A DNA stretch of 64,000 nucleotides from an uncultured Planctomycetia bacterium (GCA_964483625.1 CAZABB010000001.1:3222-67221); one strand, 5' to 3'. Counted from the first letter of the stretch, positions 8,374 to 39,401 are shown. Notes: a model not told the origin generated them from the sequence alone. Program-made: numbers and translations.

Positions 8374-8385
8374 ACATCTCTTTAT

Positions 8386-10220: not shown

Positions 10221-10226
10221 ACGTTT

Positions 10227-11249
10227 CTATCCGCCGCTCATAGGGGCGGATTCCTGACCCCGGTAAACCGGCCGGGAAGGCAGTCTCTGTTTGAAAACAA
10301 TTTCGTAGAGAACACCCGTCTTAAATATCAATCTGGTAACAAGCACGACGAAAAATTCACCAAGAGCACGGAAAGGAAGCTGGAATTCTTCCCGGTGTTT
10401 TACCATGGACGCGGCGACGATCAGGAAGGGAGACAGGATAAAAAATACCGTCTTTCTGATCCCTGCGGGAACATTCACATCAAAATGCCTGTTGAAAAAA
10501 TACATCTGCGCATACCCTCTTCCATAAATAAAGTACTGTTTCGCCAGGGCGGCAAACGCAGCCCGGTGATAATGCTTCACGGTGATACCGGGAATGTAGA
10601 GCAGTTTTCTCCCCTCACGGCAAAGAGATAAATGCAGACTAAGATCATCACAATTTATTAAACGTTCATCAAATCTGAATTTTTTGAATATATCTTTCTT
10701 ATAGGAAATATTGCAGCCGCGAAGGTGTACCGCCTCAAAAGGCTTATCTTCCCGCCTGAAATACCGGCGCAGAAATGAGGAATCCGCCGGAGTATTTTCA
10801 ATAATATCATTGTCGTCCCATATGATCTGACTGACACGGTGGAAAAAATTATTTTTTAAAGCGGGGATCGCTTTCCCCCCTATCGCCATGACGCGGGGAT
10901 ACATATTGTGGAATTTCAAAATATTCTCGACCCACATCTTATCGCAAACGCAATCATCGTCGGTTAACGCGATCACATCTCCCGCACAATACCGCAGACC
11001 CGTATTCCTTGCCGTGGCGATATTCCTCCGTCTGCGTTCCGTGACGCATCGAAACGTCGGGAAACGGACCCGGTATCCGGCAACGACCTCCGGAGTGTTA
11101 TCCGTCGAACCATTATCCACAACAATAACCTCTTCGGGCATTCTGGTCTGAACAAGCAGACTGTCCAGACAGTTTTTCAAAAGCTCCGCTCTATTGAGCG
11201 TGACGACCAGCACCGAGATTTTCGGGGGAGAACATGTCGCATTTCTCAT
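10227..11249 (-). CDS. GT2 family glycosyltransferase with C-terminal transmembrane anchor
   Basis: ISVLVVTLNRAELL..VIVVDNGSTDNT..ALTDDDC (GT-A DxD region). The C-terminal ~100 aa are hydrophobic. Confidence 0.85.
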   Translation of the reverse strand: MRNATCSPPKISVLVVTLNRAELLKNCLDSLLVQTRMPEEVIVVDNGSTDNTPEVVAGYRVRFPTFRCVTERRRRNIATARNTGLRYCAGDVIALTDDDCVCDKMWVENILKFHNMYPRVMAIGGKAIPALKNNFFHRVSQIIWDDNDIIENTPADSSFLRRYFRREDKPFEAVHLRGCNISYKKDIFKKFRFDERLINCDDLSLHLSLCREGRKLLYIPGITVKHYHRAAFAALAKQYFIYGRGYAQMYFFNRHFDVNVPAGIRKTVFFILSPFLIVAASMVKHREEFQLPFRALGEFFVVLVTRLIFKTGVLYEIVFKQRLPSRPVYRGQESAPMSGG

Positions 11250-12783
11250 AAAGTTCTACGAAGAGACCATCGAATTCCCTGCTTTCTAATTTCCTGTATT
11301 TTTTTCCTAACCATTCCTTCACTGCCAGAGAGTTCGGTTCCAGAACACCCGTTCTGAACCAGGAAGAAGAAATCAACCATATCCTTTCGAAATTATACTT
11401 TTCGATATCCCGGCTTAAATCAATTACTCCCGGCGGGACTATCCCATCCTGCCTTTCCCGCTCCTCCCACGAACGTATCTCCTTACGCCAATATGTGTCC
11501 TGCTCGGAATAGAATGTGAAATAATACGAACCTACGGGATCACGACAGCCAAAATAGTACCATAAAGAGGGCACACTGCTCGGATGCGTGTGCGCGATGA
11601 TATCATTTTTTTCCAGTTTCCTCTTTAGATATCCCGCCACGGAAACAAAATCCTTCTTAGGACACACTCCCACCGAATGCCGATTGCCGTATCCCAAAGG
11701 CATAAAGCCCGTATAATAATTAGACAGAGATACCACCGTCAACAGAACGACTCCGGCGCCGAGAAGAAACCTCACCCCGTATGCGCCTATACCGGTCACT
11801 CCCGAAGCGACGATAATATAATAAAACGGGGAAACCGCCATATTTTGCCGGTCAAGGTATATGGGTATCCATTGGGAGAAAAAAAAAGAGGCAAAAACAG
11901 GTGCAAATAAAAATACAAGCAGAAACGACACGTTTTGAGCGCGGCGGCGGCAGTAGAAAATACCGCCGATAAACAACAGAGTACATAAAATCGATCCCGG
12001 AAGATAGGCGTGGTTCGGAGCGTTGTACCCCAACGTGAAATTTTCAAAAGTAGCTAAAAGAGAACGAGGAACAGGCGTAGACAGCCAAAACGCATCTTTT
12101 ACCCAGTTGAGGTGGCTGAAAGCCTCCTTAAACCAGGGACTGAAGACAGGGAGAATCACAAGATAACTTATCAACCATTTCCTGACCGGTACTTTTTCTC
12201 TTCGAAAAAAAAGGAAAGGTATACCGGCCAAAATCACCCAGAAGGTAAAATAAGACACATAAAGGCCGAGAATAGCCGAGAGCGCAAAAGAAATCCAAAG
12301 CCACGATTTATCTTCTTTTACGGCGCGTACAAAAAAATACACTATTGCCATTATGAAACAAGGCAACAAAGTGTATTCTCTCACCTCCTGCGCATACCAG
12401 ATATGAAGGGGAGAAATAGCCAGGAGAAACGCGCTGATCAATCCCGTCTTTCTGTCGACAAACAGACTCGCCAATGTATATATCCAGAATATGGAGATCA
12501 CGCCGAACAGCACCGAAAGGGAACGCAGAGCAGCTTCACCTCTGCCAAATACTCTGATCCAGAGGCTCAGTAACGCATAATATAAAGGAGGCTGGGGACT
12601 TGATGAAGAATAATTTTCCACGATACGTACACTCACGGCTTCATCATACCAGAGATCATTGGCATCCAATCTATACATCCTCAGAGCCGTTCCGAGGAGG
12701 ATAATGAGAAAGAGGACAATAATGACCTTTTGATTTCGCATATGCAGGAGAAGTGTCATAAGGATATGCCGGTTTTCATGCAA
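11191..12783 (-). CDS. GT-C fold glycosyltransferase, ArnT/PMT-like (GT39/GT83-type; polyprenyl-phosphate-sugar dependent)
   Basis: About 12 predicted TM helices. N-terminal loop-1 DE motif region (ALRMYRLDANDLWYDEAVS) is typical of the dolichyl-P-mannose protein mannosyltransferase / ArnT family. Confidence 0.7.
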   Translation of the reverse strand: MHENRHILMTLLLHMRNQKVIIVLFLIILLGTALRMYRLDANDLWYDEAVSVRIVENYSSSSPQPPLYYALLSLWIRVFGRGEAALRSLSVLFGVISIFWIYTLASLFVDRKTGLISAFLLAISPLHIWYAQEVREYTLLPCFIMAIVYFFVRAVKEDKSWLWISFALSAILGLYVSYFTFWVILAGIPFLFFRREKVPVRKWLISYLVILPVFSPWFKEAFSHLNWVKDAFWLSTPVPRSLLATFENFTLGYNAPNHAYLPGSILCTLLFIGGIFYCRRRAQNVSFLLVFLFAPVFASFFFSQWIPIYLDRQNMAVSPFYYIIVASGVTGIGAYGVRFLLGAGVVLLTVVSLSNYYTGFMPLGYGNRHSVGVCPKKDFVSVAGYLKRKLEKNDIIAHTHPSSVPSLWYYFGCRDPVGSYYFTFYSEQDTYWRKEIRSWEERERQDGIVPPGVIDLSRDIEKYNFERIWLISSSWFRTGVLEPNSLAVKEWLGKKYRKLESREFDGLFVELYEKCDMFSPENLGAGRHAQ

Positions 12784-12834
12784 AACGTCTTCTCTGTAAA
12801 AATAAATGATCCATGGAAATACCTGCCGTTAAGA

Positions 12835-13854
12835 TTAAACCGGGGGTTTATCTTGCTCGACCTCCCATATATAGGGGTTTTTCTCCCGTATGTAGAAGTC
12901 GCATAAGCCCATTATTCTTGCATACGCCTCAAGAATCACGGCACCCGCCATCCAGAAAAAATAATTGAAGCCGCCTTCCAAATTGCGCACAACCAGGCTG
13001 AAAATGCGCAGATTGCTCAGGCTGGAAACGGCATACCCCGCTGTTTTTTTCAAATGAAGATGCCCGGTATAAACTCTCCTCCTCTGAGCAAGATAGGCCT
13101 TTACGGTACGAGGCCCCCTGTTGTAAACAACCGCTTCAGGAACGTAACATAAACGATACCCTTTCCGTACAACCAATGCCTCGATCGCCGCCTCATCGAC
13201 CGCCGTGTCGCCCGGTATTCTCGTTACCACCGCCTTTCTAAAAGCAACCAGCTCTCCCAATTTGGGATATTTTAACGCTAATTTATGATGCAGCAACCAC
13301 AGCCGATGCACGGCAAATCCCAGGAAATTCTCGGGAGTATCCCGGGGAACGGAACGGCCGCCGACCATTCCTGTATCGGGGATCGTAAAGGGCTTGAGAA
13401 GATTCTTAATCGTGTCTTTACACGGCACGGTGTCGCCGCTCTCTAGAATACAGATATCCGCAGAGGTCTGTTGGAGAAAATAATTTACCGCCGAGGCTTT
13501 TCCCAACCGTTCTTTTTGAACGAAAAGCCGTATTCGTCTATCGCGTTCTTTAAATCTCTTTACAACGTCTTCGGTATTGTCGGTACATCCGCTGGCTATA
13601 ACCACTATTTCATGAATAGTAAAACATCCCGGTTCCTGAGCGATTAATCCCTCTAATAACCGACTAATGTTGGCCTGCTCATTATAAACGGGTATCCCGA
13701 TACTGCAGGTAAGAATCCTTGTTTCCGTATGCGTAGCATCCATGGGCGAAACGAAACAAATCATTGTTAAAAGAAATTCTCCCTCCCTATGAAATATACG
13801 TATTATCTCATAAAAATTACTCAATATGAAGCGTTTCATCGGAATACCAAACAC
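12835..13854 (-). CDS. GT2 family glycosyltransferase
   Basis: IGIPVYNEQANISRLL...VVIASGCTDNTEDVV...ILESGDTV, GT-A fold motifs. The start is possibly the internal Met at ~13743. Confidence 0.8.
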   Translation of the reverse strand: MFGIPMKRFILSNFYEIIRIFHREGEFLLTMICFVSPMDATHTETRILTCSIGIPVYNEQANISRLLEGLIAQEPGCFTIHEIVVIASGCTDNTEDVVKRFKERDRRIRLFVQKERLGKASAVNYFLQQTSADICILESGDTVPCKDTIKNLLKPFTIPDTGMVGGRSVPRDTPENFLGFAVHRLWLLHHKLALKYPKLGELVAFRKAVVTRIPGDTAVDEAAIEALVVRKGYRLCYVPEAVVYNRGPRTVKAYLAQRRRVYTGHLHLKKTAGYAVSSLSNLRIFSLVVRNLEGGFNYFFWMAGAVILEAYARIMGLCDFYIREKNPYIWEVEQDKPPV

Positions 13855-17230: not shown

Positions 17231-18966
17231 ATATATCATTGATATCCATTATTTTCGGAAAAACTTTTTTTGACAGTACGAACTTTCTCAGAAGCCTTGC
17301 CCCCCGGCAGCTGAAACTCTACGCGCTCGGCGACGAATACATCCGGCGCAACGTCACCATAGAAATAAAAGACTTTATCTCCGAAGACCTCTTTTACAGC
17401 GATAAAATATATTATCACGCCTTATGGAACATCACCCGTCAGATATATGAAATGAAGCCCGATATCGTGGGTTTTTCCTGTTATTTATGGAATATCCGCC
17501 ACATCCTTTCCCTGACCCGGAATCTGAAAAATATACTGCCCGGTGTCACGACCATACTGGGCGGCCCGGAAGTCTCTTCACAACCATTTTCCCGGGAGAT
17601 TATGGAAAAAAACGACGGCATAGATATTATCGTCCGGGGAGAAGGAGAACAAACGTTCCGCGAACTTGTCTTATCCTGTCTCAACCACACTCCGAAAGAT
17701 ACGATCCCCGGCCTTACCCTGCGCAAAGAAAACGAAATTCTCGTAACTCCCGACCGAACCGACCGCGTCGACATCAACCATATCCCTTCGGTTTATGAAA
17801 CAGAAATAACTCAAAGCTATTGTCCGGGAGAGATCGCCCAGCTGGAAACCGTACGGGGATGCCCCTACCGCTGCCATTTCTGCCTCTGGCCGGGAAAATC
17901 AAGCAGTATGCTTACCCGATCCCGGATAGAACACGAATTGCGCCTGATCAAAAAAGCCGGCTTTCAGGAAGTGTGTATCTACGATTCGATTCTGGGATAC
18001 ACAAGACAACGGGCGAAGGAGATCATTCAATTGATTTTGGATCTCAAACTGGGGCTTAAGTTTAATTTCTTTCTCGATCTTAACAACATCGACGAATCCA
18101 TTGTAAAACTTGCAAAAAAGCACGAAAACATCCTACGCCCTCTTCCCCTAGGGGTGCAGACGTTACACGACGAATCATTGAAGAATACTAATATTTTCTT
18201 CAACACTGAGCGGTTTGCAAAAGGGATAGAGACTATCGATAAACACCATATGACATATGACGGGATAGACCTGCTTATCGGCCTACCAGGCGACCGCCAG
18301 GCCACCTTTAAACACTCCTTGAATCAACTGTATGCTCTTTCTCCCCGGATACATATCCGGCATCTCTTCGTCAATCCGGGGACTCATTTCTTCGAAAACC
18401 TCGAGAAATACGGGATGGCCCGTTCAGATATCGATCAATGTCACAGGATGCTGTATAATTATTCCTACAGTTACGAAAACGTCCATAAAAGCATACGCCT
18501 TCTCGTGGGATACCTCGTGTTAAAATATGGATACGAACCCGTACTTCCGTTGCGCAAATGGCTGCCGCTTTTGCGCCGCTCATTGTCATTTACCCTGCGG
18601 CATTTTTCGGTAAGCCCCGCCGATCTCTTTGATTTGTTCGGTGAATATCTGGAGAAGGAAATCCCGGCGTATTTTTCTCCCACCACCGACAGGATGAATA
18701 TGTATTCGGCCCCGCGGCTTCATCTTCCGCTTTTTCTCCGGTTCTTTCGCACCCTGCCGCTGCGGCGTAATAGAGGAGTATACCGCGAAATCTTATATCT
18801 TATTACTGCGGCAGAGTACGCCAGATGGAGGTGGAACATCCACCTGAGGAATATGATCTATTTATATCCTCGGCTACAACGCTATTCGTTATTTACAATC
18901 TTTTCCGGAACATGTGCACGATTTTTGAAATTATTCATAAGAAATAGCCGGGCAGATATCCGTTGA
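17227..18966 (+). CDS. cobalamin-binding (class B) radical SAM enzyme, tandem paralog B
   Basis: VRGCPYRCHFC. The start ATG overlaps the stop of paralog A (ATGA), suggesting translational coupling. The C-terminal half is ~55-60% identical to paralog A. Confidence 0.85.
   Translation: MNISLISIIFGKTFFDSTNFLRSLAPRQLKLYALGDEYIRRNVTIEIKDFISEDLFYSDKIYYHALWNITRQIYEMKPDIVGFSCYLWNIRHILSLTRNLKNILPGVTTILGGPEVSSQPFSREIMEKNDGIDIIVRGEGEQTFRELVLSCLNHTPKDTIPGLTLRKENEILVTPDRTDRVDINHIPSVYETEITQSYCPGEIAQLETVRGCPYRCHFCLWPGKSSSMLTRSRIEHELRLIKKAGFQEVCIYDSILGYTRQRAKEIIQLILDLKLGLKFNFFLDLNNIDESIVKLAKKHENILRPLPLGVQTLHDESLKNTNIFFNTERFAKGIETIDKHHMTYDGIDLLIGLPGDRQATFKHSLNQLYALSPRIHIRHLFVNPGTHFFENLEKYGMARSDIDQCHRMLYNYSYSYENVHKSIRLLVGYLVLKYGYEPVLPLRKWLPLLRRSLSFTLRHFSVSPADLFDLFGEYLEKEIPAYFSPTTDRMNMYSAPRLHLPLFLRFFRTLPLRRNRGVYREILYLITAAEYARWRWNIHLRNMIYLYPRLQRYSLFTIFSGTCARFLKLFIRNSRADIR
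17287..17972. repeat. 686-bp tract identical to 15548..16233 (copy 2)
   Basis: As above. Flanking sequence on both sides is clearly diverged. Confidence 0.9.
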
Positions 18967-19022
18967 CCAGAGGACATTCAATCCATGGCGGCGGGATTTT
19001 TCATTCTACCGGAATATCAGAC

Positions 19023-19838
19023 ATGGATTACGCTGTAGAAATAAGTCATTTGACCAAGACCTTTAGACCAAATAAAACATTTTATCGTTTTCTCACTCAT
19101 CCATTTCGTGTCGAAAAACCCATAACCGCTCTTCACGATATCTCACTCCGGATCAAGAAAGGTGAACTACTGACCCTTGTCGGCCCAAATGGCGCGGGAA
19201 AAAGTACGTTGTTAAAAATCCTTTCCTGCCTTATCCTGCCGACCTCGGGAAAAGCCAAAATAGCAGGACACGATGTGGTAAAAAATCCCGGAGAAGTAAA
19301 AATGGCCATAGGTCTGATTTCCGGCGATGAACGAAGTTTCTACTGGCGCCTTACCCTGCGCCAGAATCTTTCTTTCTTTGCCGCCTTATACAACGTCTTC
19401 GGTAATCAAGCAGAAGAAAGGATGAAATATCTTGCGTCTTTTCTCCAATTGACTCCTCACTTGGACCGGCGTTTTCAGGAAACATCCACCGGAATCAGAC
19501 AACGGATGATGATCGCGCGTAGTTTACTCAACAATCCTTCCGTTCTGTTTATGGACGAACCGAATAAAAGTCTGGATATCGCCATAAACAGAGAGCTTTT
19601 CCGGACAATAGAAGAAGAACTGATCAACAAACAGGGGAAAACAATCATCCTGGCCACACATACCCTTTCTGAGATACACACACCTGTGACGAAGATAGCG
19701 ATAATGAAAGAAGGAGAAATAAAAGCATGCGGGACCATCGAAGAGTTAACCCGGTCGTTTAACGTGTCTTCGAAAAATACCGAACATATATATAAAACGG
19801 TGATACAAGATGAATCGTACGGAGACATTCCTACGTAA
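19023..19838 (+). CDS. ABC transporter ATP-binding protein (ABC-2 / Wzt-TagH-like exporter ATPase, no C-terminal carbohydrate-binding domain)
   Basis: Walker A LVGPNGAGKSTLLKIL, signature/Walker B region (..LFMDEPNKSLD). The start is trimmed to MDYAVEISHLTKTF; the longest ORF runs from 18963. Confidence 0.85.
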   Translation: MDYAVEISHLTKTFRPNKTFYRFLTHPFRVEKPITALHDISLRIKKGELLTLVGPNGAGKSTLLKILSCLILPTSGKAKIAGHDVVKNPGEVKMAIGLISGDERSFYWRLTLRQNLSFFAALYNVFGNQAEERMKYLASFLQLTPHLDRRFQETSTGIRQRMMIARSLLNNPSVLFMDEPNKSLDIAINRELFRTIEEELINKQGKTIILATHTLSEIHTPVTKIAIMKEGEIKACGTIEELTRSFNVSSKNTEHIYKTVIQDESYGDIPT

Positions 19839-20634
19839 AGCGTGGGCTTTCATCAAAAAAGATTTTCATATCCAGTCAAGTTACCGTATCTCTTTCCTTT
19901 TCGAATGGTTAGGCATCCTGATCCACGCGGCAACGTTCTATTTTGTGGCAAAGTTGTTCGAACAGAACCTGACGCCTTACCTGAAAGAATACCAGACCGG
20001 ATATTTCCCTTTTGTTCTTATCGGGATAGCCTTTTCCGGATACCTTTCTATTGCCATACGCAGTTTTTCGGGAAATATACGGCGGGAACAAATGATGGGC
20101 ACATTGGAAGCAATGATAACAACCCCCACCCGGCTGCCGATATTGATCGTTTCTCTCTCACTCTGGAACTTCATCTTTACCTCCATCAGCAGTTTTATTT
20201 ATCTGTCCTGCGGCGTACTGTTTTTTGACGTCGATTTAAGCCATATGAACATCGGAGCCACGCTGATTATTCTTCTGCTCACGATCGTCTCATTCAGCTG
20301 TATCGGGATAATTTCCGCTTCGTTTGTGATCGTGCTGAAAAAAGGCGACCCGGTCAGCTGGCTGACGGATACATTCGCTCGATTTTTCGGAGGAGCCCTC
20401 TTTCCCGTAATCATACTCCCGAAGGGATTACGGACGATTTCTTATTTTTTACCGATCACATATTCACTCAAAGCACTGCGCCATTCTCTGCTGCAGGGAT
20501 ATGGATTCAGCATGCTCCGTTTCGAAATCGGGATACTGCTGGCATTCTGTATTATTCTTGGTCCCCTCAGCCTATGGACATTTCGCGGCGCGGTCAGGAA
20601 AGCGAAAAATACGGGAAGCCTGGCCCATTATTGA
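19810..20634 (+). CDS. ABC-2 type transporter permease (Wzm/TagG-like)
   Basis: About 6 TM helices and an N-terminal amphipathic AFIKKDF motif typical of ABC-2 permeases. It overlaps the ATPase gene by 29 nt. Confidence 0.8.
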   Translation: MNRTETFLRKAWAFIKKDFHIQSSYRISFLFEWLGILIHAATFYFVAKLFEQNLTPYLKEYQTGYFPFVLIGIAFSGYLSIAIRSFSGNIRREQMMGTLEAMITTPTRLPILIVSLSLWNFIFTSISSFIYLSCGVLFFDVDLSHMNIGATLIILLLTIVSFSCIGIISASFVIVLKKGDPVSWLTDTFARFFGGALFPVIILPKGLRTISYFLPITYSLKALRHSLLQGYGFSMLRFEIGILLAFCIILGPLSLWTFRGAVRKAKNTGSLAHY

Positions 20635-26705: not shown

Positions 26706-27806
26706 TCACTGTAAACGCAGCGTCGTACTCAAACTGACGGGACACCGGCGACAATAATTCATTCTTCTTTTACGGAAATGACGGAAGCGCGCCGAATGCC
26801 AAATGGTATCCAAGTCTTCATCAAATAAATTGCCGAGAACCGGATGTTGTGTGAAATCAACGGCCGGACAAGGAGCAACGTCTCCATTCTTTAAAATCAA
26901 CGCAAAGGAGCAGGGGAGGTCACAGAATAGAGAAGGCTCTATATGCTGTAAATACACACCTCGGGAAAAACTTTCGGGAGAACTCAGGCGGAAATCGTAT
27001 ATATTTTTAATCTTCTTGGTATTAAACTTCCTGTCCCGCGGCTTTATCCCGGGAAAATCCCGGAGACAAACATGAATCTGTTCGCTTATATGCGTACGAA
27101 AATGCCGGATTTGCTGCATATCGAGAAGGAAACGATCTTGTCCAAAATCGTATTCAATATAATCGATATCCAGAGAATCACAGCCCAGCGTTTTCGCCAG
27201 CGTAATCATCCCGGGGACATCCTGAAAGGTATACCGGGAGAGGATCATCCGTATGCCGACTTCGATATTTTGCCCCGGAAGCCTCTTCAACCGAACCAGA
27301 GCCTTGATGCCATGCACAGCTTTATCATACAACCCCACACATCTTCGCAGATCATCGTGGATATCCCTATGAGGGCTATCGATAGAGACAATAAACCGAT
27401 CCACACCTTTTTCCACTAAACACTGCGCCAAAACCTCATCAAGTAAACCGCCGTTGGTATTGAGCGTAACGTCCATGGCTCGCTCCTTTATTTCCTCTAC
27501 TATGACGGAAAGCTTTTCGTACAACAACGGCTCGCCGCCGCTTAGAATAACTTCTTTACACTTCAAGCGTACTAACGCATCAAATAACTTAACATAATCA
27601 TTAATCTCCATTTTCCTGTCCGCATTCTTACTGCGATAATGCTCTCTTCGTGCCGTACACGCCCCGCAACGGGCAAAACAATTCTCCTCTATTTTTAAAA
27701 CGACCCTTTTTAACTTCGATTGACAACACTTCCATTTCACATTCGTTATCTTAGAATGAGAGAAAAGAACGCGCATTGTATGCAGACGAGATAGGATACT
27801 GTTCAT
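26706..27806 (-). CDS. radical SAM enzyme with SPASM domain
   Basis: CFARCGAC (CxxxCxxC) and SGGEPL motifs. C-terminal region CDLPCS...PC...GNLFDEDLDTIW...CRRCPVS. Confidence 0.85.
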   Translation of the reverse strand: MNSILSRLHTMRVLFSHSKITNVKWKCCQSKLKRVVLKIEENCFARCGACTARREHYRSKNADRKMEINDYVKLFDALVRLKCKEVILSGGEPLLYEKLSVIVEEIKERAMDVTLNTNGGLLDEVLAQCLVEKGVDRFIVSIDSPHRDIHDDLRRCVGLYDKAVHGIKALVRLKRLPGQNIEVGIRMILSRYTFQDVPGMITLAKTLGCDSLDIDYIEYDFGQDRFLLDMQQIRHFRTHISEQIHVCLRDFPGIKPRDRKFNTKKIKNIYDFRLSSPESFSRGVYLQHIEPSLFCDLPCSFALILKNGDVAPCPAVDFTQHPVLGNLFDEDLDTIWHSARFRHFRKRRMNYCRRCPVSLSTTLRLQ

Positions 27807-28837
27807 AATCTATGGTCGTGGGGTTTTTTCCATCTTTCAGGCATATACCGTATTTTTTGCCACAGCACATGGACGCCACAGAATAGGAATCCCAATCCAT
27901 AACTGATATGTGTGAGGGGGAAAAGAAAAATGAGCAAAGGGGTCACTACTACGTCCTTTTTTTCCCATGTAATTGCCGCAGTGAATACCAGAAGAAATGC
28001 ACTATAGAGATAGAATGGAATAAGAAACCATACATTTCTATAAAAAGGAAGAAAGACGGCATATCCGACGAACAGGCTTGGCAGAAAGAAGATGCCGGAA
28101 AAAATATCGGGCAGATATATCATGGTTTGAAACCTTCCCTTTCCGTACCTGTATATTTGCGAACAATAGGCTGCTATATTTGCCCGCCGACAATGATACA
28201 CGACGAGATGAGGAACAAAAAGGGCACGGAATCCTCTCTGATACAACTGGTGTAATAAAAGATTCTCCTCCGCACATACCAGATCTTCGTTGAAATAGAT
28301 GAGGGTACGTTCAAATACATCCATCCTTATCGCAAGATTGCATAATATTAAACTTCGCTCCGTTACCACTTTCTCCTGGCCGTATCCTTTATATCGCTGA
28401 CTCATTTGATATGTGCCGAAAAATGAGCTTAAAACGTACCCCTGACACTGCTGAAAACGACTGCTCACCGGTGGAGTTAGATTGGGGCCGCCGACAATAT
28501 GAATATCCGGGTGTTGTTCGAATTTTTCGATTAAGAGTTGTAACGTATCCACCCCAATCACCACATCGTCATCTATAAAGTAGGCAATCCGCCCTCTTGC
28601 CATTTTCAACGCCCGGTTTCGGGCGCAACCCTTTGTCGTTTCATGAAGAATATGGATATGTATATTCTTTTTCTCCCTGAAACGACGGGAAATACTCTGA
28701 AGTAACAATCTGTTGTTATTCACAAGCACAATCACTTCACAATCAGAAAACCGGGCCGCCTCGGTGATACTTTGCAAGCAAGTGTTGACAGAATTACTGT
28801 CTTTAGAAAAAGGGACGATTACCGAAATTACGCACAT
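27803..28837 (-). CDS. GT2 family glycosyltransferase with C-terminal transmembrane segments
   Basis: ISVIVPFSKDSNSV..EVIVLVNNN..YFIDDDV. The C-terminal ~90 aa are hydrophobic. Confidence 0.8.
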   Translation of the reverse strand: MCVISVIVPFSKDSNSVNTCLQSITEAARFSDCEVIVLVNNNRLLLQSISRRFREKKNIHIHILHETTKGCARNRALKMARGRIAYFIDDDVVIGVDTLQLLIEKFEQHPDIHIVGGPNLTPPVSSRFQQCQGYVLSSFFGTYQMSQRYKGYGQEKVVTERSLILCNLAIRMDVFERTLIYFNEDLVCAEENLLLHQLYQRGFRALFVPHLVVYHCRRANIAAYCSQIYRYGKGRFQTMIYLPDIFSGIFFLPSLFVGYAVFLPFYRNVWFLIPFYLYSAFLLVFTAAITWEKKDVVVTPLLIFLFPLTHISYGLGFLFCGVHVLWQKIRYMPERWKKPHDHRL

Positions 28838-28840
28838 AGA

Positions 28841-30622
28841 TTATTTTTTCCGGCCGTCCGAATTCAACAATACATACACAATGACTTTTATGCGGCCGAA
28901 ATCCTTTTTTTCCACTCGAGTAAAATGTGAATCGAAATATGCGAGAAAATCATGATTCTGCGCCCAGGATGTATATATAACATATATTTTTCTGGGTATA
29001 AGGATATTGCCAGCTGTTTCGAAATGATATTTTTCAAGAAAATTACGCAACGATGCAGTCCTGTCGGTATCATACACATCAGGATGCAATTCTCTGATGA
29101 AAGAATGAAGAGCTTCTTGCTTCACCGGAGAAAGCCATCGATCTAGATCCGAGTATAGGCGCCAGTTCCCGCCTATTTCCTGCTTCAGATCTTCTTCTGA
29201 AGCGAATTCGAACGAAATTGCCTCCAGTAAAGTGTATAGTTTCTCGAAGCCGAGGGTCCTGGTTTTTATTTCTTTTCGTGCCTTTTCGTTGAAATTATAC
29301 CATAAGGAACGCACCTGATTATCGGGAAATACGACTATTCGATCGCCGGAAGAGAGATGTTGATCGATCAAATATCCACTCACGGCTTTCCATGGCATTT
29401 TTGTCTGCCGGTGATAAATCTGGTTCAACGCCGGGATCATTAAAAGCATAATGCATAGAAGGATCCCGACAAAAAGACGGGAATTCTTTATGCCGTATAT
29501 ACCTCTGGCGATGAGGATATCAAACGCGGGGAGAACGATGAGAAAATGCCGGATGGTATGAATAGGAAATACCAATATTGAAAAACCGTATGCTGTTACG
29601 ATGGGAAACATAAGCCACAGGATGAGAAAAAATACGCTTCCCGGGTCGGTGAATAGGCTTTTTTTCCTCTTTTTCTGACTTTCGCAGTCATCCGGTACAG
29701 AAATGGATCCCGCCGGCTTCAGACTAGAGAGCAGACCAAAACCACCGATGATAAAGAAAATAAAGATGAGATAGTGCGGCAGGATAAGAGAAGAAAAATC
29801 CATAAGGAAATCCTCCCCTCCCCATCCATAATGTTGTCCTCCGTAAACAAAGGTTTTCCATAAATTCAGAAGAGTATGCTGACGGATCCCTCCCTCCATA
29901 TTCATCCATGACAATATCCCCTTGATACGATCAAAATTGCAGAAAGTGAAAACAAGATATGGAAGACAGGGGAAGACAACACCAATATTGACGAGGATCC
30001 ATCTGAGCCGATACCGCCGTATTTTAAAAATAAAGAATATATTTAAAAAAGCCAGAATAAAAAATCCATAGAAATGGGCATTGAGAAGAAGAAAAGCACA
30101 AAGAGAAAAATAAATATAATCCCGCCAAAGGTGGCCGTCCTGCACGATTCGTAAAAAGAATAAAGCCGTAAGCAGAGTCAGAAAGGTCGCAAATACGAAC
30201 GCCCCGATTTCCTGGGAGTAAAAAATATGGAAGGGGGATATAGCGAGCAAAAAAGCACTGAGTATCCCCGTTTTCTCCCCGTAAAGCCGACGGGCCACAC
30301 AGTATATGAGAAATAAAGAAAACGTGCCGTAGAGGACGGAAGATATCCGCAGCGCCACGATGTTTTCTCCCCAGAAATTGATCCAGATTCTTAAAAAATT
30401 CTTATATAAAGGAGGGAAGGTGTCCCAAGCAAAAAAATACTCAAAAACATCGGGAATGCTCCGAGTCGCTCTCCATATAAGGCTGGCTTCATCGTACCAG
30501 ACACTTTCACTGCCCAGAGCATACGTACGTAAGAGGAATCCCCCGCATAGAATCCCCGCAAGAAAAAGGAACTTACGCAGGGAGAGAGATGAATTTTTTT
30601 TCAAATTTTCGCATTTCATCAT
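28841..30622 (-). CDS. GT-C fold glycosyltransferase, ArnT/PMT-like (paralog of the protein at 11191..12783)
   Basis: At least 12 TM helices. The N-terminal loop motif LRTYALGSESVWYDEASL parallels YRLDANDLWYDEAVS in the other GT-C protein. Confidence 0.7.
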   Translation of the reverse strand: MMKCENLKKNSSLSLRKFLFLAGILCGGFLLRTYALGSESVWYDEASLIWRATRSIPDVFEYFFAWDTFPPLYKNFLRIWINFWGENIVALRISSVLYGTFSLFLIYCVARRLYGEKTGILSAFLLAISPFHIFYSQEIGAFVFATFLTLLTALFFLRIVQDGHLWRDYIYFSLCAFLLLNAHFYGFFILAFLNIFFIFKIRRYRLRWILVNIGVVFPCLPYLVFTFCNFDRIKGILSWMNMEGGIRQHTLLNLWKTFVYGGQHYGWGGEDFLMDFSSLILPHYLIFIFFIIGGFGLLSSLKPAGSISVPDDCESQKKRKKSLFTDPGSVFFLILWLMFPIVTAYGFSILVFPIHTIRHFLIVLPAFDILIARGIYGIKNSRLFVGILLCIMLLMIPALNQIYHRQTKMPWKAVSGYLIDQHLSSGDRIVVFPDNQVRSLWYNFNEKARKEIKTRTLGFEKLYTLLEAISFEFASEEDLKQEIGGNWRLYSDLDRWLSPVKQEALHSFIRELHPDVYDTDRTASLRNFLEKYHFETAGNILIPRKIYVIYTSWAQNHDFLAYFDSHFTRVEKKDFGRIKVIVYVLLNSDGRKK

Positions 30623-31658
30623 CGGACAGAAAATTTCTATTCCGGCACCGCACCGTTTCCCGGGCCTGAGTAATATTCCAGCCGTAGGCCCGTAGATACG
30701 CGGTTATTTTTGATCCTTCCTGAGTATACCCCCTCGCCTGGAATGTTTTTTCTTCTCTGCCTTCTATCCATATCTTTATACGGTATAATCGATATTTTAC
30801 CATACCGTATATTTTACCCAGATCATATATCCATATCCAACACATACACAGGATACTGTGATTCTTTATCAGGAATCGCATCCTGTTACGAGTCACATAA
30901 TAAAATCTATTTTCCTCCTCCTCTTCGGAGCTGAAGGTGTGAAGCGCTCCGGTACGAGAAGTGATGAAATTCCTATACCCTCTTCTCTGCAACCTATAGC
31001 CGAAATCTTTATCTTCGGAAGGATATACGAAATACGGATCAAATCCTCCCGCTTCTAAAACTCTCTTCTTTTCTACCATGCAATTACTCGTGGGGACATA
31101 CGTGCATTGCCGATTCGTTTCCCCGCGTCCGCCTTCCACATTAACATATGTATCCAAGGAATCTCCTCCCCGCGTTACATTGACGCCATGAACCTGAAGA
31201 AGGGCCCCGGCGACGAAAAACGCCTCCCCTCCGACTTCAGCCGTACTATGATGTTTACGCAACCACGCCACCATATTCTCTATCATCTCTGTGCAGATCA
31301 ATTCCGTATCACTGTCAAGGAAAAGAAGGTATTGACCGCGGGACTTTATGATCCCCCTGTTTCGCGAATAGGAGGGACCGTACCTGTATTTATTCCTGTA
31401 TATGACAACTTCAGAGAAGGCCGCTGCGATATATTGGGACGTCCCGTCTTCGCTATGGTCATCAACCACTATGATCTCGCTCTGCCGATACGACTGCTGT
31501 TTCACAGAAGCGATACACCTGCCCAGCAGATACTTTCTATTTAATGTAACGACGATAACCGAAACCAATCCTTCAACGTATTCCATACACGAATCTCCTC
31601 CCCGTAAAACCGGAAACGATTCCTTATCAGCGAATGAAGATATACTCCCTGGGCACAA
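30573..31658 (-). CDS. GT2 family glycosyltransferase
   Basis: VSVIVVTLNRKYLL..EIIVVDDHSEDGT..LFLDSDT. The likely start is the internal Met at 31586 (MEYVEGL). Confidence 0.85.
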   Translation of the reverse strand: MCPGSISSFADKESFPVLRGGDSCMEYVEGLVSVIVVTLNRKYLLGRCIASVKQQSYRQSEIIVVDDHSEDGTSQYIAAAFSEVVIYRNKYRYGPSYSRNRGIIKSRGQYLLFLDSDTELICTEMIENMVAWLRKHHSTAEVGGEAFFVAGALLQVHGVNVTRGGDSLDTYVNVEGGRGETNRQCTYVPTSNCMVEKKRVLEAGGFDPYFVYPSEDKDFGYRLQRRGYRNFITSRTGALHTFSSEEEEENRFYYVTRNRMRFLIKNHSILCMCWIWIYDLGKIYGMVKYRLYRIKIWIEGREEKTFQARGYTQEGSKITAYLRAYGWNITQARETVRCRNRNFLSDDEMRKFEKKFISLPA

Positions 31659-32662
31659 CGGCAGTTCTTTGTCTCTTTGAGGGTTAATTTTGCCGCATCC
31701 GTCCCCATTATTTCGGAAAACGTGTGAGCCTTCAAGTTGCCTACCGGACGGATGAACTCACACAGACTCATGTCTCCGTTGGGAAAAATCACTATGGTAT
31801 CCAGACGGGCCCGGCAGGCACGAGTAAGTTTTCCTTCCATCAACCTTAGATAGAGCTCATTCCTGATTCTGTCTTCTTTTGTCCAGAACCGAAATCCTGA
31901 TTTTCCGGATAAAGACTCCAGCCTCCGCAGGAAGCTTTCGTATTCGGGAATGGATAAAAACAGGTCGCGACGAAGAACGGTCAGATCACGCAACAGGGAT
32001 ATGTCGGCGTGAAAGACGGAAACATCGGCACTTTTCAAGGGAGAAAATTTTGCTCTGACCTTTTTCTTTCCCAGATAGCGAACCACGTTATCTATATCAG
32101 TATAGTTTGCCTTCATAACCGGGAAGCATACGGTAACACGGAGATTTTTATAGCGGCGTCTGAGCTGAACCAACCGGTCCAGAGTACGATCCATCTGTAA
32201 AAATGAATCACCCACTCCGCTTATTTTATTATGTACCTTTTCCGTCCCCAAGAGAGAGACCTGAATGAACATGGTATTACGGGGAAAATCTTCCATAACG
32301 TTCCTTACGGTTTCCTCAACCCGGCGAGGGAAATATCCGTTGGTATTAATTTCGATCGTTCTGGCTCCCGTGCCTGCGAGGAAATGCTTACAGATGGCAG
32401 AGATATCCGTCCGTACAAAAGGTTCGCCTCCCGTTAAACTTACGAACCTCACCCGGGGCAGCGCCCGAATTATTTTCTTAATATCTTCCCTAGGAGGATT
32501 GAACCCACCCAGCTGTTTTTGATAAAAACAGTGGATGCACCGGCAGGCACATTGATTTGTGACGTAAAAAATCACATCCTTGGGACGATGTATCCAAAAT
32601 TTCTTCAACACCTTCATCGTGAAACGAAAACACCGCAGATGCCTCTTTGGGAAAAATGACAA
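31541..32662 (-). CDS. radical SAM enzyme with SPASM-like C-terminus
   Basis: YVTNQCACRCIHC and TGGEPF motifs. C-terminal Cys cluster (LCEF..GNL..EIM...CRC). The likely start is at 32617 (MKVLKKFW). Confidence 0.8.
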   Translation of the reverse strand: MSFFPKRHLRCFRFTMKVLKKFWIHRPKDVIFYVTNQCACRCIHCFYQKQLGGFNPPREDIKKIIRALPRVRFVSLTGGEPFVRTDISAICKHFLAGTGARTIEINTNGYFPRRVEETVRNVMEDFPRNTMFIQVSLLGTEKVHNKISGVGDSFLQMDRTLDRLVQLRRRYKNLRVTVCFPVMKANYTDIDNVVRYLGKKKVRAKFSPLKSADVSVFHADISLLRDLTVLRRDLFLSIPEYESFLRRLESLSGKSGFRFWTKEDRIRNELYLRLMEGKLTRACRARLDTIVIFPNGDMSLCEFIRPVGNLKAHTFSEIMGTDAAKLTLKETKNCRCAQGVYLHSLIRNRFRFYGEEIRVWNTLKDWFRLSSLH

Positions 32663-33901
32663 TTATTTTAATGCCAGCTTACAACAACGATGACAGACCG
32701 AAAAAAAATCATTCTTGGCAAGAACGTTTCTGAATAATCTCATGTTCTTGCCTCCCCATATATCTTTAAGCGATTCCTGCACGGCATTGCCTATTTTGAA
32801 CGAAATACCGCAAGGGTACACGTCTCCGCCGGGAGAAATTTCCAGCTCCCGCCAGGGGACACGGCATTTTCCGGCGTACGAGACGCTATCGTAATTATAA
32901 TAATATTCATGTATTTCCTCTTCTCCTATTTCGGGACGGAAGAATATTCTTTTATCATACTTATTTTTTATTGTGACGACGATACGAGCCAACTTTCGCG
33001 TATCTATCTGAACTTCCTCAACGCTTACGTTGTCTCTCGTAACAACTTTCCCAAAATATTGATGTGTGACAAGACAAAACTGTTTCTGGGCGTTACGGGT
33101 AGTAAATCCAAGGTGCTCGAAATAAATATCCACCGCCGGATGGGATCGTCGTATCTGGCACACGAAATCCTCCAACGTCTCGTAATTTTTATCCGAAATA
33201 ACGCAGTTCACCGAGATATTGCCGACGGGAACTCCGGATTCGAGCAACGCCCGCATAGTATCGGTCGTTTTCGCGAAAGCCCCTTTATACCCTCTGATAC
33301 GATCATGCACATCGGAGAGGCCGTCTAAGGAAAGAGAAAACCGTATATCCTTCAGAGTGGCAATTCGGGAAATCATTGACCGGGACAGAAGAGTCCCGTT
33401 GGTCCGAACCGTAATCGGGAAACCTGATACACTCAAAAACCGCAAGATTTCTCCCATATCCTCACGACAAAACGGTTCTCCTCCCGTAATCGTCACGGTA
33501 GGCAACGCGAAAGAAAACCGGTATTCGTGTCTTATGCGGGAAAATACTTTCTTCATCATTCCCAGGGGCAACTCTGTAGCGACAATGGTTCGGGAAGAGC
33601 GACTGTTGACGAAAGGGCACATGGCGCAATGGAGGTTGCACCGATAGGTAACTCGTAATATTATCGAGGAAGGCAAACCGCCGATGCTCTTATTCCAGAG
33701 GACAGAAATTTCTTTTCGCGAGAAGGGCTTTACGAGTTTTACGTTCACGGTATATTTACCGATACACGGCCGGTAGAAAAGAACGCCGTACTCATCCGCA
33801 TGAGGTTTTCTCGATAATATAATCTTCCAATACCATACAATCCATCCCGCTTTCCTGAAAACAACGCACTGCATCGTCGGGAGTACAGACGATCGGTTCA
33901 T
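32663..33901 (-). CDS. radical SAM enzyme with SPASM domain
   Basis: LRVTYRCNLHCAMC and TGGEPF motifs. C-terminal region CRVPW..PCG...GNAVQESLKDIW...CHRCC. The longest ORF overlaps the upstream gene by 110 nt. A GTG start at 33748 would remove the overlap, but no good SD was seen. Confidence 0.8.
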   Translation of the reverse strand: MNRSSVLPTMQCVVFRKAGWIVWYWKIILSRKPHADEYGVLFYRPCIGKYTVNVKLVKPFSRKEISVLWNKSIGGLPSSIILRVTYRCNLHCAMCPFVNSRSSRTIVATELPLGMMKKVFSRIRHEYRFSFALPTVTITGGEPFCREDMGEILRFLSVSGFPITVRTNGTLLSRSMISRIATLKDIRFSLSLDGLSDVHDRIRGYKGAFAKTTDTMRALLESGVPVGNISVNCVISDKNYETLEDFVCQIRRSHPAVDIYFEHLGFTTRNAQKQFCLVTHQYFGKVVTRDNVSVEEVQIDTRKLARIVVTIKNKYDKRIFFRPEIGEEEIHEYYYNYDSVSYAGKCRVPWRELEISPGGDVYPCGISFKIGNAVQESLKDIWGGKNMRLFRNVLAKNDFFSVCHRCCKLALK

Positions 33902-35483
33902 CTCTCAGATTGAAAGACGTGTTTAACACAAGAGGAACCCCGCTCAAACGGAAAAACGCGTCTATCAAACCCCAGAACCGAGGCGACGTTCCCCGACTCA
34001 CCGTCTGAACCCGTGCCGTTCCATCGACATGAGTGACCGCAGGGATGACCGGCCGTTTTTCCGACAAAACGCTTGCCGTCAACAACATAAACGGTGAATT
34101 CTGTTGTATGGCAAAATAATCCGTTGCCTTTTCTTCCAATACCGCAGGCGCATACGGCCGGAAGGGTTCCCGTTTCTTTACTTTTTCATTCAACAGTCTT
34201 TTCATGTGAGGATGGCAGGGATTTGCCAGAATTGATCTGTTTCCCAATGCCCGGGGACCGAACTCCATTCTCCCCTGGAACCAACCTACGATTTTATTCT
34301 TGACTAATAATCTGGCGACATATTCCTCCCGAGTCGTTTTCTCCATCTCTCTAAAAGCGATATCGTGAGAAGACAAAACCCTCCGTATCTGACGTGATGA
34401 ATACCGCGGCCCCAGATAGGCATGGTTCATGATGTGTTTCCTTCGCCCGCCGAAAAGATTATAGTAGAGGTAAGACGCCGCTCCCACGGCGCCGCCGCTA
34501 TCCCCGGCCGCCGGCTGTATAAACACCTTTTTGAACGGAGTCTGTTCAAGGATTTTCCCATTCAGAACACAATTGAGAAAGATTCCGCCGGAAAGGCACA
34601 GAGAATCTATTTTTATCTCCTCGTAAAGATTGCGGATAATCTTTATCATTGTCTCCTCCAGAAATACCTGCAGACTCGCCGCGATATCACAATGACGTTC
34701 TGTAATCGCATCTTCCGGTAAACGTTCGGGGCCGAAGACCTCTGTGAATTTTTTGCCGTACATTTTCGTACCCCGGACAAAATTGAAATACCGCAGGTCC
34801 AGCCGGAAACTACCGTCGTCTTTTGCTCTTACCATGTTTCTGAATGTATCGGTATAGCACGGTTTCCCATAGGCGGCCAACCCCATTACTTTACCTTCTC
34901 CGCGCAATGCGGCAAATCCCAGATATGTGGTTACCGTCGTATACAGCAGACCCAAAGAGTGAGGATACTTTATTTCTCTCAGAATCTTAATCTGGTTGCC
35001 TCGTCCGACGCCGCAGGTCGTCGTCGTCCATTCACCTACCGCATCAGCGGTAAGAATAGCGGCCTCAGCAAAAGGTGACGGGAAAAAACTACTGGCGGCG
35101 TGAGACAGATGATGTTTGACAAATCTGACTTCTCGTTCGAAGCCGAATTCTTTTTTTAGCATGAGCGGTAATGCCAACCTGTCCTGCAACCACGCCGGCA
35201 TGGTATTGAGAAATCTCTCCAGTGAGAACGGATAGGCATGTATATGGTCGACGACCGTCCGATAAAATTTCAAGAAGGGTTTTTCGTAGAATGCTACACA
35301 GTCGATATCCGAGAAGCCTATGTTTCCTTCCTGAATACAGTAGTGTATCGCCTGCGTGGGGAAATCGGAAGAATTCTTGTTGCGGTTAAACCTCTCCTCC
35401 TGGGCGGCCGTAACGATTTCTCCCTCTCTCAGGAGACAAGCAGCCGCATCGTGATAATGACATGAAATACCTAAAATATTCAT
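33792..35483 (-). CDS. carbamoyltransferase, NodU/CmcH/TobZ family (Kae1-like + YrdC-like domains)
   Basis: N-terminus MNILGISCHYHDAAACLL..EERFNR (ASKHA fold, HxH metal motif). The ~560 aa length and C-terminal domain are typical of O-carbamoyltransferases. Confidence 0.85.
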   Translation of the reverse strand: MNILGISCHYHDAAACLLREGEIVTAAQEERFNRNKNSSDFPTQAIHYCIQEGNIGFSDIDCVAFYEKPFLKFYRTVVDHIHAYPFSLERFLNTMPAWLQDRLALPLMLKKEFGFEREVRFVKHHLSHAASSFFPSPFAEAAILTADAVGEWTTTTCGVGRGNQIKILREIKYPHSLGLLYTTVTTYLGFAALRGEGKVMGLAAYGKPCYTDTFRNMVRAKDDGSFRLDLRYFNFVRGTKMYGKKFTEVFGPERLPEDAITERHCDIAASLQVFLEETMIKIIRNLYEEIKIDSLCLSGGIFLNCVLNGKILEQTPFKKVFIQPAAGDSGGAVGAASYLYYNLFGGRRKHIMNHAYLGPRYSSRQIRRVLSSHDIAFREMEKTTREEYVARLLVKNKIVGWFQGRMEFGPRALGNRSILANPCHPHMKRLLNEKVKKREPFRPYAPAVLEEKATDYFAIQQNSPFMLLTASVLSEKRPVIPAVTHVDGTARVQTVSRGTSPRFWGLIDAFFRLSGVPLVLNTSFNLRDEPIVCTPDDAVRCFQESGMDCMVLEDYIIEKTSCG

Positions 35484-35676
35484 ACTTTACCCTCTCCGCA
35501 GGCCTAAATTCCGGCGTAAATGAACGTAACGACAACCGCCGGCCCCAGATAATAGGCTAACAATACCAGAAGAATCAACAGAAAAAAGAGCGGAGTTAAA
35601 AAGTACACCTTATGCCGCCTAATCATATATATCGTTTCTTTGAATATATATATCATTTTTCCCATATTCGCATTCT

Positions 35677-35895
35677 TTACGATTGCCGCAGACTATTGTC
35701 GGCATCAGGCTCATAACCGTGGGGAGAACACCAGAACGTATTTTCCGGACGTTCTCTCCTGCGCCCGATAAGAAAATAATATATACACATGCACACAGCG
35801 GTTATCCCCACACCGATGATGTACACAATGACCAACGCCATCTTAAGACAAGTTTTCCGCACGGATTGCATCAGACTCCGCAATCTCCGTTTCAC
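35677..35895 (-). CDS. small hypothetical membrane protein (72 aa, one TM helix)
   Basis: The ORF sits directly between the amidotransferase and carbamoyltransferase genes and has a hydrophobic core (LKMALVIVYIIGVGITAVCMCIYYFLIG). A second 40-aa hydrophobic ORF lies on the minus strand at 35515..35630 (MIRRHKVYFLTPLFFLLILLVLLAYYLGPAVVVTFIYAGI). Confidence 0.35.
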   Translation of the reverse strand: MKRRLRSLMQSVRKTCLKMALVIVYIIGVGITAVCMCIYYFLIGRRRERPENTFWCSPHGYEPDADNSLRQS

Positions 35896-38601: not shown

Positions 38602-39354
38602 TTATTCGTGATCCCCCTCCTCACGTTTCCTACGAAACCATCCCGGTAACATCAAAGCCTTAAAGTACTCAACATACACTCTGGGAGTCAGTTTCGACGC
38701 TCCCTCATGACGCATATCAATCATATAGGGAATATTTTGTATAGATGTGTGCCGGGGCATTACTTTTAAAAAATCGAAAAGGATTTTGTACCCCCGGGGA
38801 CGAAACAAACGATCCCCTTCGCTTTCAAACACGATCTTTTTCCAGAAAGACGTGCGCACGCCGAAAAAACCGCTGAGCACATCCAGAAAAAACAAACGTT
38901 TATAGTGTGCGCATAAACACATTCTTCCCAAAGCGTTTCCCAGAAGAGAAATCGCTCTGCGCTGCACAGGCCAATACCCCTGAATGGATGTCCGAGAAGC
39001 GATTGTCAATTGCATCCCGCTCTCCAGAGCAGTCACAATCTCTTTTACTTTTTCCGGGGGATGCTGTCTATCAGCGTCCATGACGATAAAATACTTTGTC
39101 GCCACATGCGCGCTGGCAGCTAGTACGCTTGCCGTCAGGCCATGTATTCTCTCCCGTTTCCGGTCGAGAAAAAAAATATTTTCGCAGTCTTTCTGAAAAG
39201 AACGAACAATTGCACCGGTACCATCAACTGAACCATCGTCACTTACCATCAGGCAGATTCCCGGATAATACTGTTTCAATGCTATCATGACCCGGCCGAT
39301 ATTATGTTCTTCGTTTAATGTGGGAAGGATGATTGTGAAATCAGAATGGCCCAT
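38602..39354 (-). CDS. GT2 glycosyltransferase, polyprenyl-phosphate sugar synthase-like (DPM1/ArnC/GtrB-type)
   Basis: FTIILPTLNEEHNI...LMVSDDGSVDGT...IVMDADRQHPP. The short (~250 aa) soluble GT-A form is typical of dolichol/undecaprenyl-phosphate sugar synthases. Confidence 0.75.
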   Translation of the reverse strand: MGHSDFTIILPTLNEEHNIGRVMIALKQYYPGICLMVSDDGSVDGTGAIVRSFQKDCENIFFLDRKRERIHGLTASVLAASAHVATKYFIVMDADRQHPPEKVKEIVTALESGMQLTIASRTSIQGYWPVQRRAISLLGNALGRMCLCAHYKRLFFLDVLSGFFGVRTSFWKKIVFESEGDRLFRPRGYKILFDFLKVMPRHTSIQNIPYMIDMRHEGASKLTPRVYVEYFKALMLPGWFRRKREEGDHE

Positions 39355-39401
39355 AAGAAAGCTGCCCCCTCTGGAAATATTCAAGAAGCGGAATCATCGG
39401 T

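Follow-up and report, generated by a model that had tools for sequence, protein, structure and literature searches.

Three-component systems of periplasmic glycosylation have been described for O antigens, including those exported by ATP-binding cassette (ABC) transporters; examples are the GtrA/GtrB/Gtr* systems of Shigella and Salmonella, the addition of galactose to the ABC-exported O antigen of Klebsiella O2, and ORF12-15 of Citrobacter youngae (PMC11127046). Here we examine two gene modules in a 64,000-nt stretch of DNA (the window) from an uncultured Planctomycetia bacterium (GCA_964483625.1, CAZABB010000001.1:3222-67221), in each of which a gene for a glycosyltransferase of the GT-C class stands between two genes for family 2 glycosyltransferases (GT2): module 2, at 27803-31658 and with the GT-C named GTC2, is the main subject of this work, and module 1, with GTC1, lies at 10227-13854. 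The window resembles the three-component systems in holding GT-Cs and a DPM1-like GT2 in one glycan cluster, and the Klebsiella O2 case in having an ABC-type exporter. It differs from the three-component systems in that a search of the window gave no gene for a flippase, its DPM1-like GT2 adjoins neither GT-C, the GT-Cs are flanked by GT2s that are not DPM1-like, and GT-C-like proteins outnumber the synthase by two (possibly four) to one. Negative statements on cluster content cover, here and below, the 64 kb of the window at the level of open reading frames (ORFs) of at least 170 aa, plus a check of the gaps.

The best analogue for what we propose below, paralogous GT-Cs with one donor, is the Rgt system of Rhizobium leguminosarum, where several paralogous GT-Cs of the PMT_2 type (RgtA-D) share a single polyprenyl-phosphate sugar, the product of one GT2 (RgtE), and add it at different sites on one surface glycolipid. 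The window proteins differ in showing no equivalog-level similarity to this system and in standing in a context rich in radical S-adenosylmethionine (SAM) genes, not in a lipopolysaccharide core locus. With ArnT (GT83) and the protein O-mannosyltransferases (GT39) the window GT-Cs share a PMT_2 region, an acidic motif after the first transmembrane (TM) helix and the GT-C fold, with a TM-score of about 0.5 to ArnT. Unlike these, they have a different C-terminal periplasmic domain and no MIR domain (a Pfam scan of GTC1 and GTC2 gives PMT_2 only, with neither MIR nor PMT_4TMC), and the sequence relation is marginal, as are all matches of a GT-C family profile to PDB sequences (ArnT E 0.17). Among the flanking GT2s, the downstream one of module 2 (by structure) and the upstream one of module 1 (by sequence) resemble PcManGT (6yv7) and the hyaluronan and cellulose synthases in combining a GT-A domain with a small TM bundle; unlike hyaluronan and cellulose synthases, the family of the former has no conserved canonical QxxRW.

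The recurrence of this architecture is real, and duplication of the unit as a block is not supported. Module 2 lies on the minus strand and consists of GT2_up2 (30573..31658; 361 aa), a soluble GT2 of the GT-A type with a DSD motif, a Pfam Glycos_transf_2 match of 88 bits and no TM segment; GTC2 (28841..30622; 593 aa), with a PMT_2 match of 47.9 bits; and GT2_dn2 (27803..28837; 344 aa), which also matches the Pfam GT2 family and is predicted to be embedded in the membrane by three C-terminal TM helices. The start of GT2_up2 is probably the ATG at 31586, with a GGAGG-like sequence just before it, rather than the TTG at 31658. Module 1, on the same strand, comprises GT2_up1 (12835..13854), with a Pfam GT2 match, GTC1 (11191..12783; 530 aa; PMT_2 67.5 bits) and GT2_dn1 (10227..11249; Pfam GT2 114.8 bits), which carries two C-terminal TM segments. 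Both units show the Pfam order Glycos_transf_2, PMT_2, Glycos_transf_2, and all matches exceed their gathering scores (26.1 bits for PMT_2). Packing is tight, with gaps of -59 to +51 bp within the two units: GT2_up2 and GTC2 overlap by 50 bp, only 3 bp separate GTC2 from GT2_dn2, and GTC1 overlaps GT2_dn1. The ORF calls and Pfam matches thus bear out what a preliminary description of this DNA had said of the three ORFs and their common order and orientation, and the C-terminal TM anchor that it assigned to the downstream GT2 was recovered in both copies by a simple and rather crude hydropathy scan, with two segments at residues 262-314 in GT2_dn1 and three at 239-314 in GT2_dn2. If eight GT2 and two GT-C genes were ordered at random among 47 genes, both GT-Cs would be flanked by GT2s on both sides with P ~5e-4, so the recurring layout is not a trivial coincidence.

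Comparison of their sequences indicates that GTC1 and GTC2 are true, ancient paralogues in which the catalytic D-E motif is retained. They share 140 of 541 aligned positions (26%; E 2e-31), a homology that goes well beyond TM composition, the point on which the preliminary description had made its reading depend. The N-terminal match that it had reported between SVWYDEASL and LWYDEAVS is also real, lying within SESVWYDEASL in GTC2 and ANDLWYDEAVS in GTC1; the pair D44-E45 (YDEA), in the first loop after TM1, is invariant in all 22 aligned family members, both window copies included, and R92 is invariant too. The crude scan gives nine hydrophobic segments in GTC2 and seven in GTC1, within the 7-13 TM helices that mark GT-Cs of the PMT_2 type. 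Searching PDB sequences with GTC2 (phmmer) returned no match, and NCBIfam holds no equivalog-level model for these GT-Cs, which gave sub-threshold matches to Agl23, MT1671 and STT3 only and none to ArnT. With sequence relations to solved GT-Cs this marginal, it took a fold search to establish the family.

The AlphaFold2 model of GTC2 (pTM 0.81) has a helical bundle to about residue 404, followed by an alpha/beta C-terminal domain. Residues 454-540 form an insertion of ~85 residues in this periplasmic domain, which is of low confidence in the model and is lacking from GTC1 and most homologues. When the model was compared with the PDB by Foldseek, the top 39 matches were all GT-C enzymes with probabilities of 0.99-1.00 (STT3 1e-7; ArnT TM-score 0.52), and the matched folds include STT3/OST, Pmt4, Pmt1/2, AglB, PglB, ArnT, DPY19, ALG and Emb/Aft. 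Judged by this model, GTC1 and GTC2 have a true GT-C fold. Their paralogy, the D-E motif and the fold together make action at the periplasmic face with a lipid-linked donor the expected chemistry at the level of the family, in line with what the preliminary description had assumed, and as members of the family both would use a sugar donor linked to polyprenyl phosphate on the extracytoplasmic face. The family is very large: clustering at 50% identity leaves 38,397 representatives with E <= 1e-30, most of them full-length and about 500 aa long.

The preliminary description went further and read the two units as a module-level duplication, which holds for the domain architecture only. In keeping with a copy made en bloc, order and orientation are identical at the Pfam level beyond what chance would readily give, the GT-Cs are homologous, the downstream GT2s are both anchored in the membrane, and GT2_dn1 is the best non-member on the profile of the GT2_dn2 family (132 bits, against 111 for GT2_x and 87 for GT2_y). 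GT2_dn2 itself scores 398 bits on that profile, however, so GT2_dn1 shares its architecture and not its subfamily. GT2_dn2 fully belongs to a large GT2 subfamily with homologues in Omnitrophota, Elusimicrobiota and other lineages, to which it is 40-44% identical, as against 24% (E 6e-14) in the pairwise comparison with GT2_dn1. Nor are the two downstream GT2s reciprocal best matches: in an all-against-all comparison of the window proteins GT2_dn1 is closest to GT2_y at 23883 (4e-32) and GT2_dn2 to GT2_x at 22972 (2e-20), and their mutual match ranks third or fourth (4e-12). GT2_up1 and GT2_up2 are related at family level only (BLASTP E 0.11). Among the three gene pairs, the GT-Cs alone are reciprocal closest paralogues within the window, and even these do not group together in the phylogeny that had been suggested as a check. 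In a neighbour-joining tree of 66 homologues and three window proteins, made from a trimmed alignment and with weak internal support, they were sisters in 0 of 100 bootstraps; GTC1 fell with proteins of Omnitrophota and GTC2 with the metagenomic P0001, P0004 and P0005, groupings with 32-54% support. GTC1 also scores 203 bits against the GT-C of an Omnitrophota metagenome-assembled genome (MAG; locus L088), with 31% identity over 503 aa, compared with 98 bits against GTC2. At the DNA level no similarity between the modules was found by blastn at word size 7 (best E 0.14 over 17 nt).

Gene contexts in other genomes were compared in 83 loci fetched around GT-C homologues, of which 80 could be evaluated for adjacency, with GT2s detected there by profiles derived from the window. 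A GT2 adjoins the GT-C in 11 of the 80, and GT2s on both sides were seen only once (L033, Nitrospirota), where the parts resemble module 1 weakly. At long range, where the synteny check proposed at the outset was made, a looser neighbourhood does recur. The nearest homologue of GTC2 is 32% identical, and a scan of the genome collection with a 6-sequence alignment found no close relative. The closest GTC2 homologues all lie among B12-binding and SPASM radical SAM genes; over the 83 loci a radical SAM gene occurs in 18, a frequency that may be near chance for anaerobes. In five of six contexts of GT2_dn2 orthologues, radical SAM genes and a PMT_2 GT-C lie no more than 10 kb away, in an order that differs each time, and the partner GT-C is of the GTC1 type, which suggests that partners have been shuffled between lineages. 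In locus L089 a DPM1-like GT2 and a GT2_dn2 orthologue stand side by side after the GT-C.

Some of these loci show blocks of their own. In four MAGs of Anaerolineae/Chloroflexota (L008, L010, L013 and L014, at ~7400-13000) a B12-binding and a SPASM radical SAM gene are followed by two tandem GT-C paralogues of the GTC1/GTC2 family. An Omnitrophota MAG (L088:451-9174) and a metagenomic contig (L092:10001-17582) share the series GT2 (an orthologue of GT2_dn2), U32 (a peptidase-U32-family protein), PMT_2 GT-C, SPASM radical SAM, B12-binding radical SAM and a second U32, with a sulfatase nearby. The contig of the closest GTC2 homologue also encodes a 681-aa fusion of an N-terminal GT2 with a C-terminal radical SAM domain (L002:698-2743).

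The four flanking GT2s find their best solved relatives among different enzymes. Sequence search against the PDB gives PcManGT, a membrane mannosyltransferase, for GT2_up1 (6yv7, E 1.3e-14), which is also 43% identical to an Omnitrophota ORF in locus L018; and chondroitin and heparosan synthases, GalT1 and PglI for GT2_up2 and GT2_dn1, the latter with chondroitin synthase as its best match (3.5e-19) and dolichyl-phosphate mannose synthase (DPMS) only at 0.007. For GT2_dn2 the one sequence match among solved proteins is TarS, with none to GtrB, ArnC or DPMS at E <= 0.01 and none of these in the top 50 structural matches. Its model (pLDDT 94), which shows the C-terminal helices at 248-330, has its best folds in hyaluronan synthase (TM-score 0.66), BcsA, PcManGT and TarP/TarS. 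D89-D90-D91 and E190-E191 are invariant in the GT2_dn2 family, and the motif at Q227 is QIFxYGRGR (consensus Q-I-F-x-Y-G-R-G-R) and not QxxRW. The label 'ExoA', which JGI gives to homologues of GT2_dn2, was not adopted; a tblastn search of all PLSDB plasmids gave no match to a rhizobial exo locus at E <= 1e-5. On these sequence and model comparisons, no flanking GT2 in either module is DPM1-like.

The gene that does have this character is GT2_260 (38602..39384, minus strand; 260 aa, with a probable start at the ATG at 39354), a DPM1/GtrB/ArnC-like GT2 that shares a minus-strand gene run with module 2. It matches the Pyrococcus furiosus Dol-P-Man synthase in the PDB (5mlz, 8e-20), as well as ArnC (1e-7) and GtrB (9e-6), and in NCBIfam PgfS, AglJ, ArnC and PpgS, all under their cutoffs. 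The preliminary description had called it a third DPM1-like GT2; the likeness stands and the count does not, the flanking GT2s being of other kinds. It is the sole DPM1-like GT2 in the window and a candidate for the polyprenyl-phosphate-sugar synthase from which the GT-Cs would receive their donor. Ten of the 83 loci have a GT2_260-like gene near the GT-C homologue, and in L089 such a gene follows the GT-C directly.

On balance, and with slightly better than even confidence in the explanation as a whole, we favour a surface glycan that is exported by an ABC transporter and decorated on the periplasmic face by the paralogous GT-Cs, which would draw on a shared lipid-linked donor. This explanation starts from the homologies, folds, motifs, gene packing and gene contexts described above and extends from them, conditionally, to which donor and acceptor are used, on which side of the membrane the enzymes act and how the glycan is exported. 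In the cytoplasm, GT4 and GT2 enzymes would put together a lipid-linked glycan, with possible tailoring by methyl, carbamoyl and radical SAM chemistry. The flanking GT2s, for which the matches to elongating or synthase-like GT2s suggest an elongating role, would build or extend this glycan from nucleotide sugars at the cytoplasmic face, the downstream ones being held in the membrane by a small synthase-like helical bundle. Transport across the membrane would fall to the ABC-2 exporter at 18963..20634 (plus strand), which consists of an ABC ATPase (ABC_tran 98 bits) and an ABC-2 permease (ABC2_membrane 51 bits; 5 TM segments) of the Wzt/Wzm type. GT2_260 would charge polyprenyl phosphate with a sugar, the donor would be flipped, and GTC1 and GTC2 would then add the sugar at different positions or linkages of the exported glycan on the periplasmic face. 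Since the window holds a single DPM1-like synthase, it is more economical to suppose that both GT-Cs share one donor and differ in acceptor position or linkage than that they add two sugars. As to the origin of the modules, the old GT-C paralogues would have ended up flanked by GT2s from different subfamilies, in a cluster with a gene order that is fluid across lineages.

Several observations weigh against this explanation. No Pfam family of flippases of the GtrA, SMR or MATE type occurs among the window ORFs, and neither an initiating phosphoglycosyltransferase nor a ligase was found in the 64 kb, so the pathway as seen is incomplete. GT2_260 is separated from GTC2 by 8 kb and from GTC1 by 26 kb, which ties it to the GT-Cs by membership of the cluster and not by adjacency. 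That the acceptor is a glycan, not a protein, we only infer. Moreover, the fold of GT2_dn2 resembles that of PcManGT, whose activity we take to depend on dolichyl phosphate, and a role as donor synthase is therefore possible for the downstream GT2s themselves.

Were that the case, each module could be self-contained, with the TM-anchored downstream GT2 acting as a donor synthase that feeds the adjacent GT-C, and the two modules could add two different sugars, as the preliminary description had supposed. The 3-bp spacing of GT2_dn2 and GTC2 and the overlap of GT2_dn1 and GTC1 fit such a coupling, as do the combination of a GT-A domain with two or three C-terminal TM helices, the PcManGT-like fold just mentioned and the co-occurrence of GT2_dn2 orthologues with PMT_2 GT-Cs in five of six contexts. 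We nevertheless consider it rather unlikely, since GT2_dn2 matches no enzyme of the GtrB/ArnC/DPMS kind in sequence (at E <= 0.01) or among its top 50 structural matches, GT2_dn1 is far closer to chondroitin synthase than to DPMS, and the window has a separate DPM1-like GT2; in L089, where such a GT2 stands beside a GT2_dn2 orthologue, the two types are not interchangeable.

It is improbable, in our judgement, that the GT-Cs are PMT-like O-glycosyltransferases which modify secreted or surface proteins and not a polysaccharide. The PMT_2 domain, the D-E motif at the position of the DE in loop 1 of PMT, the presence of Pmt4 and Pmt1/2 among the structural matches and the large tetratricopeptide repeat (TPR) proteins encoded in the cluster would suit such a role, but ArnT and the oligosaccharyltransferases match the structure equally well, the MIR and PMT_4TMC domains are lacking, and the context is of a polysaccharide type, with an ABC-2 exporter, a GT4, many GT2s, deacetylases and a family 5 glycoside hydrolase (GH5). 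En bloc duplication of GT2 - GT-C - GT2 with very deep divergence, and possibly with replacement of the upstream GT2, is largely refuted by the unrelatedness of the GT2 pairs beyond family or architecture, the GT-C tree, the lack of DNA similarity and the single recurrence of the arrangement among 80 contexts, and we give it very little credence.

Returning to the surroundings of module 2, its genes belong to an uninterrupted minus-strand run that reads CarbT1, two radical SAM/SPASM genes, GT2_up2, GTC2, GT2_dn2 and a further radical SAM/SPASM gene. CarbT1 (33792-35483), a carbamoyltransferase by Pfam, and the two radical SAM/SPASM genes (32663-33901 and 31541-32662, also by Pfam), all on the minus strand, are its upstream operon partners, with gaps of -110, 0 and -118 bp down to GT2_up2; the radical SAM/SPASM gene at the other end (26706..27806, minus strand; Pfam Radical_SAM and SPASM) overlaps the end of GT2_dn2 by 4 bp and belongs to the same operon. 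Gaps across the whole operon range from -118 to +3 bp. CarbT1 shares 61% identity with an ORF of Omnitrophota (locus L061) whose neighbour is a GT-C. Just upstream of CarbT1, at 35504-35895 on the minus strand, the gap contains two mini-ORFs of 53 and 72 aa with one TM helix each, the 53-aa one with a below-threshold match to DUF5989 (E 1.2e-4); small membrane proteins of this sort presumably accompany carbamoyltransferases, as in sxtI-J-K.

The operon sits inside a surface-glycan gene cluster that exceeds 60 kb, and the window can be read as one or two very large clusters of glycan type, with SAICAR synthase, PEPCK and a tRNA-Leu between them. About 15 radical SAM genes are present, seven with a B12-binding domain, seven with a SPASM domain and one with neither, along with three carbamoyltransferases of the TobZ/NodU type, a myo-inositol-1-phosphate synthase, a sugar epimerase and a SAM methyltransferase. 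The window further encodes two polysaccharide deacetylases, GDSL proteins, a GH5, one GT4, eight GT2s, large TPR proteins, a xylose-isomerase-like TIM barrel protein, two PP-loop ATPase-like proteins and, in all, four GT-C-like proteins. Its sizeable intergenic gaps hold only the two single-TM mini-ORFs and a tRNA. This is a tRNA-Leu(GAG) at 42229-42312 on the minus strand; directly upstream of its 5' end a stretch of ~123 bp is directly repeated in tandem (about 42299-42421 and 42422-42544; a third, partial unit starts at 42545), each unit opening with the first ~14 nt of the tRNA-Leu.

Other duplications in the window are of a different character. A remote PMT_2 protein at 46694-48412 was considered as a third copy of GTC1/GTC2 and rejected (BLASTP E 0.05; hhalign probability of 25% to their family). 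It is a paralogue of an 11-TM protein of 743 aa without annotation at 55890-58121 (26% over 348 aa, E 2e-25), and each of the two is followed by a carbamoyltransferase on the same strand, at 48678-50342 and 54126-55880 respectively. These carbamoyltransferases are mutual closest paralogues (41% identity, E 4e-136), CarbT1 being only 30% identical. The similarity of both partners indicates that this two-gene unit, at 46694-50342 on the plus strand and 54126-58121 on the minus strand, is duplicated, with better support than the GT2 - GT-C - GT2 pair. The adjacent B12-binding radical SAM genes at 15482-17230 and 17227-18966 (plus strand) are 73.6% identical over 579 aa, and this identity marks them as a probable recent tandem duplication, unlike the ancient GT-C pair.

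A GT-C beside a GT2 in a surface-glycan locus is routine, and the parts described here are of known kinds; the rejection of a block duplication guards against the inference of two sugars from one copied cassette. The more unusual lead is the radical-SAM-rich setting, with ~15 such genes, three carbamoyltransferases and four GT-C-like proteins. The lineage is poorly sampled and, going by its best-named homologues alone, probably akin to Omnitrophota. GT-Cs of the GTC1/GTC2 family and radical SAM enzymes may form a functional unit in which a sugar is tailored on or for the polyprenyl-phosphate carrier and then transferred to the surface, an idea that we consider improbable. The B12-dependent and SPASM-type enzymes would carry out, for example, C-methylation, deoxygenation or epimerisation of the sugar, and the scheme would parallel, by anaerobic radical chemistry, the DprE1/E2 - Emb/Aft logic of mycobacteria. 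What speaks for it are the recurring radical SAM/GT-C blocks of the Anaerolineae loci and of L088 and L092, the radical-SAM-rich contexts of the closest GTC2 homologues and the position of GTC2 between three SPASM genes in the window; a literature search for clusters of radical SAM and GT-C genes found nothing relevant. The GT-C family is large, and in the searches made it has neither a solved close relative nor an equivalog-level NCBIfam model, and if its association with radical SAM enzymes is functional, it would represent an unexplored route to modified surface sugars in anaerobes.

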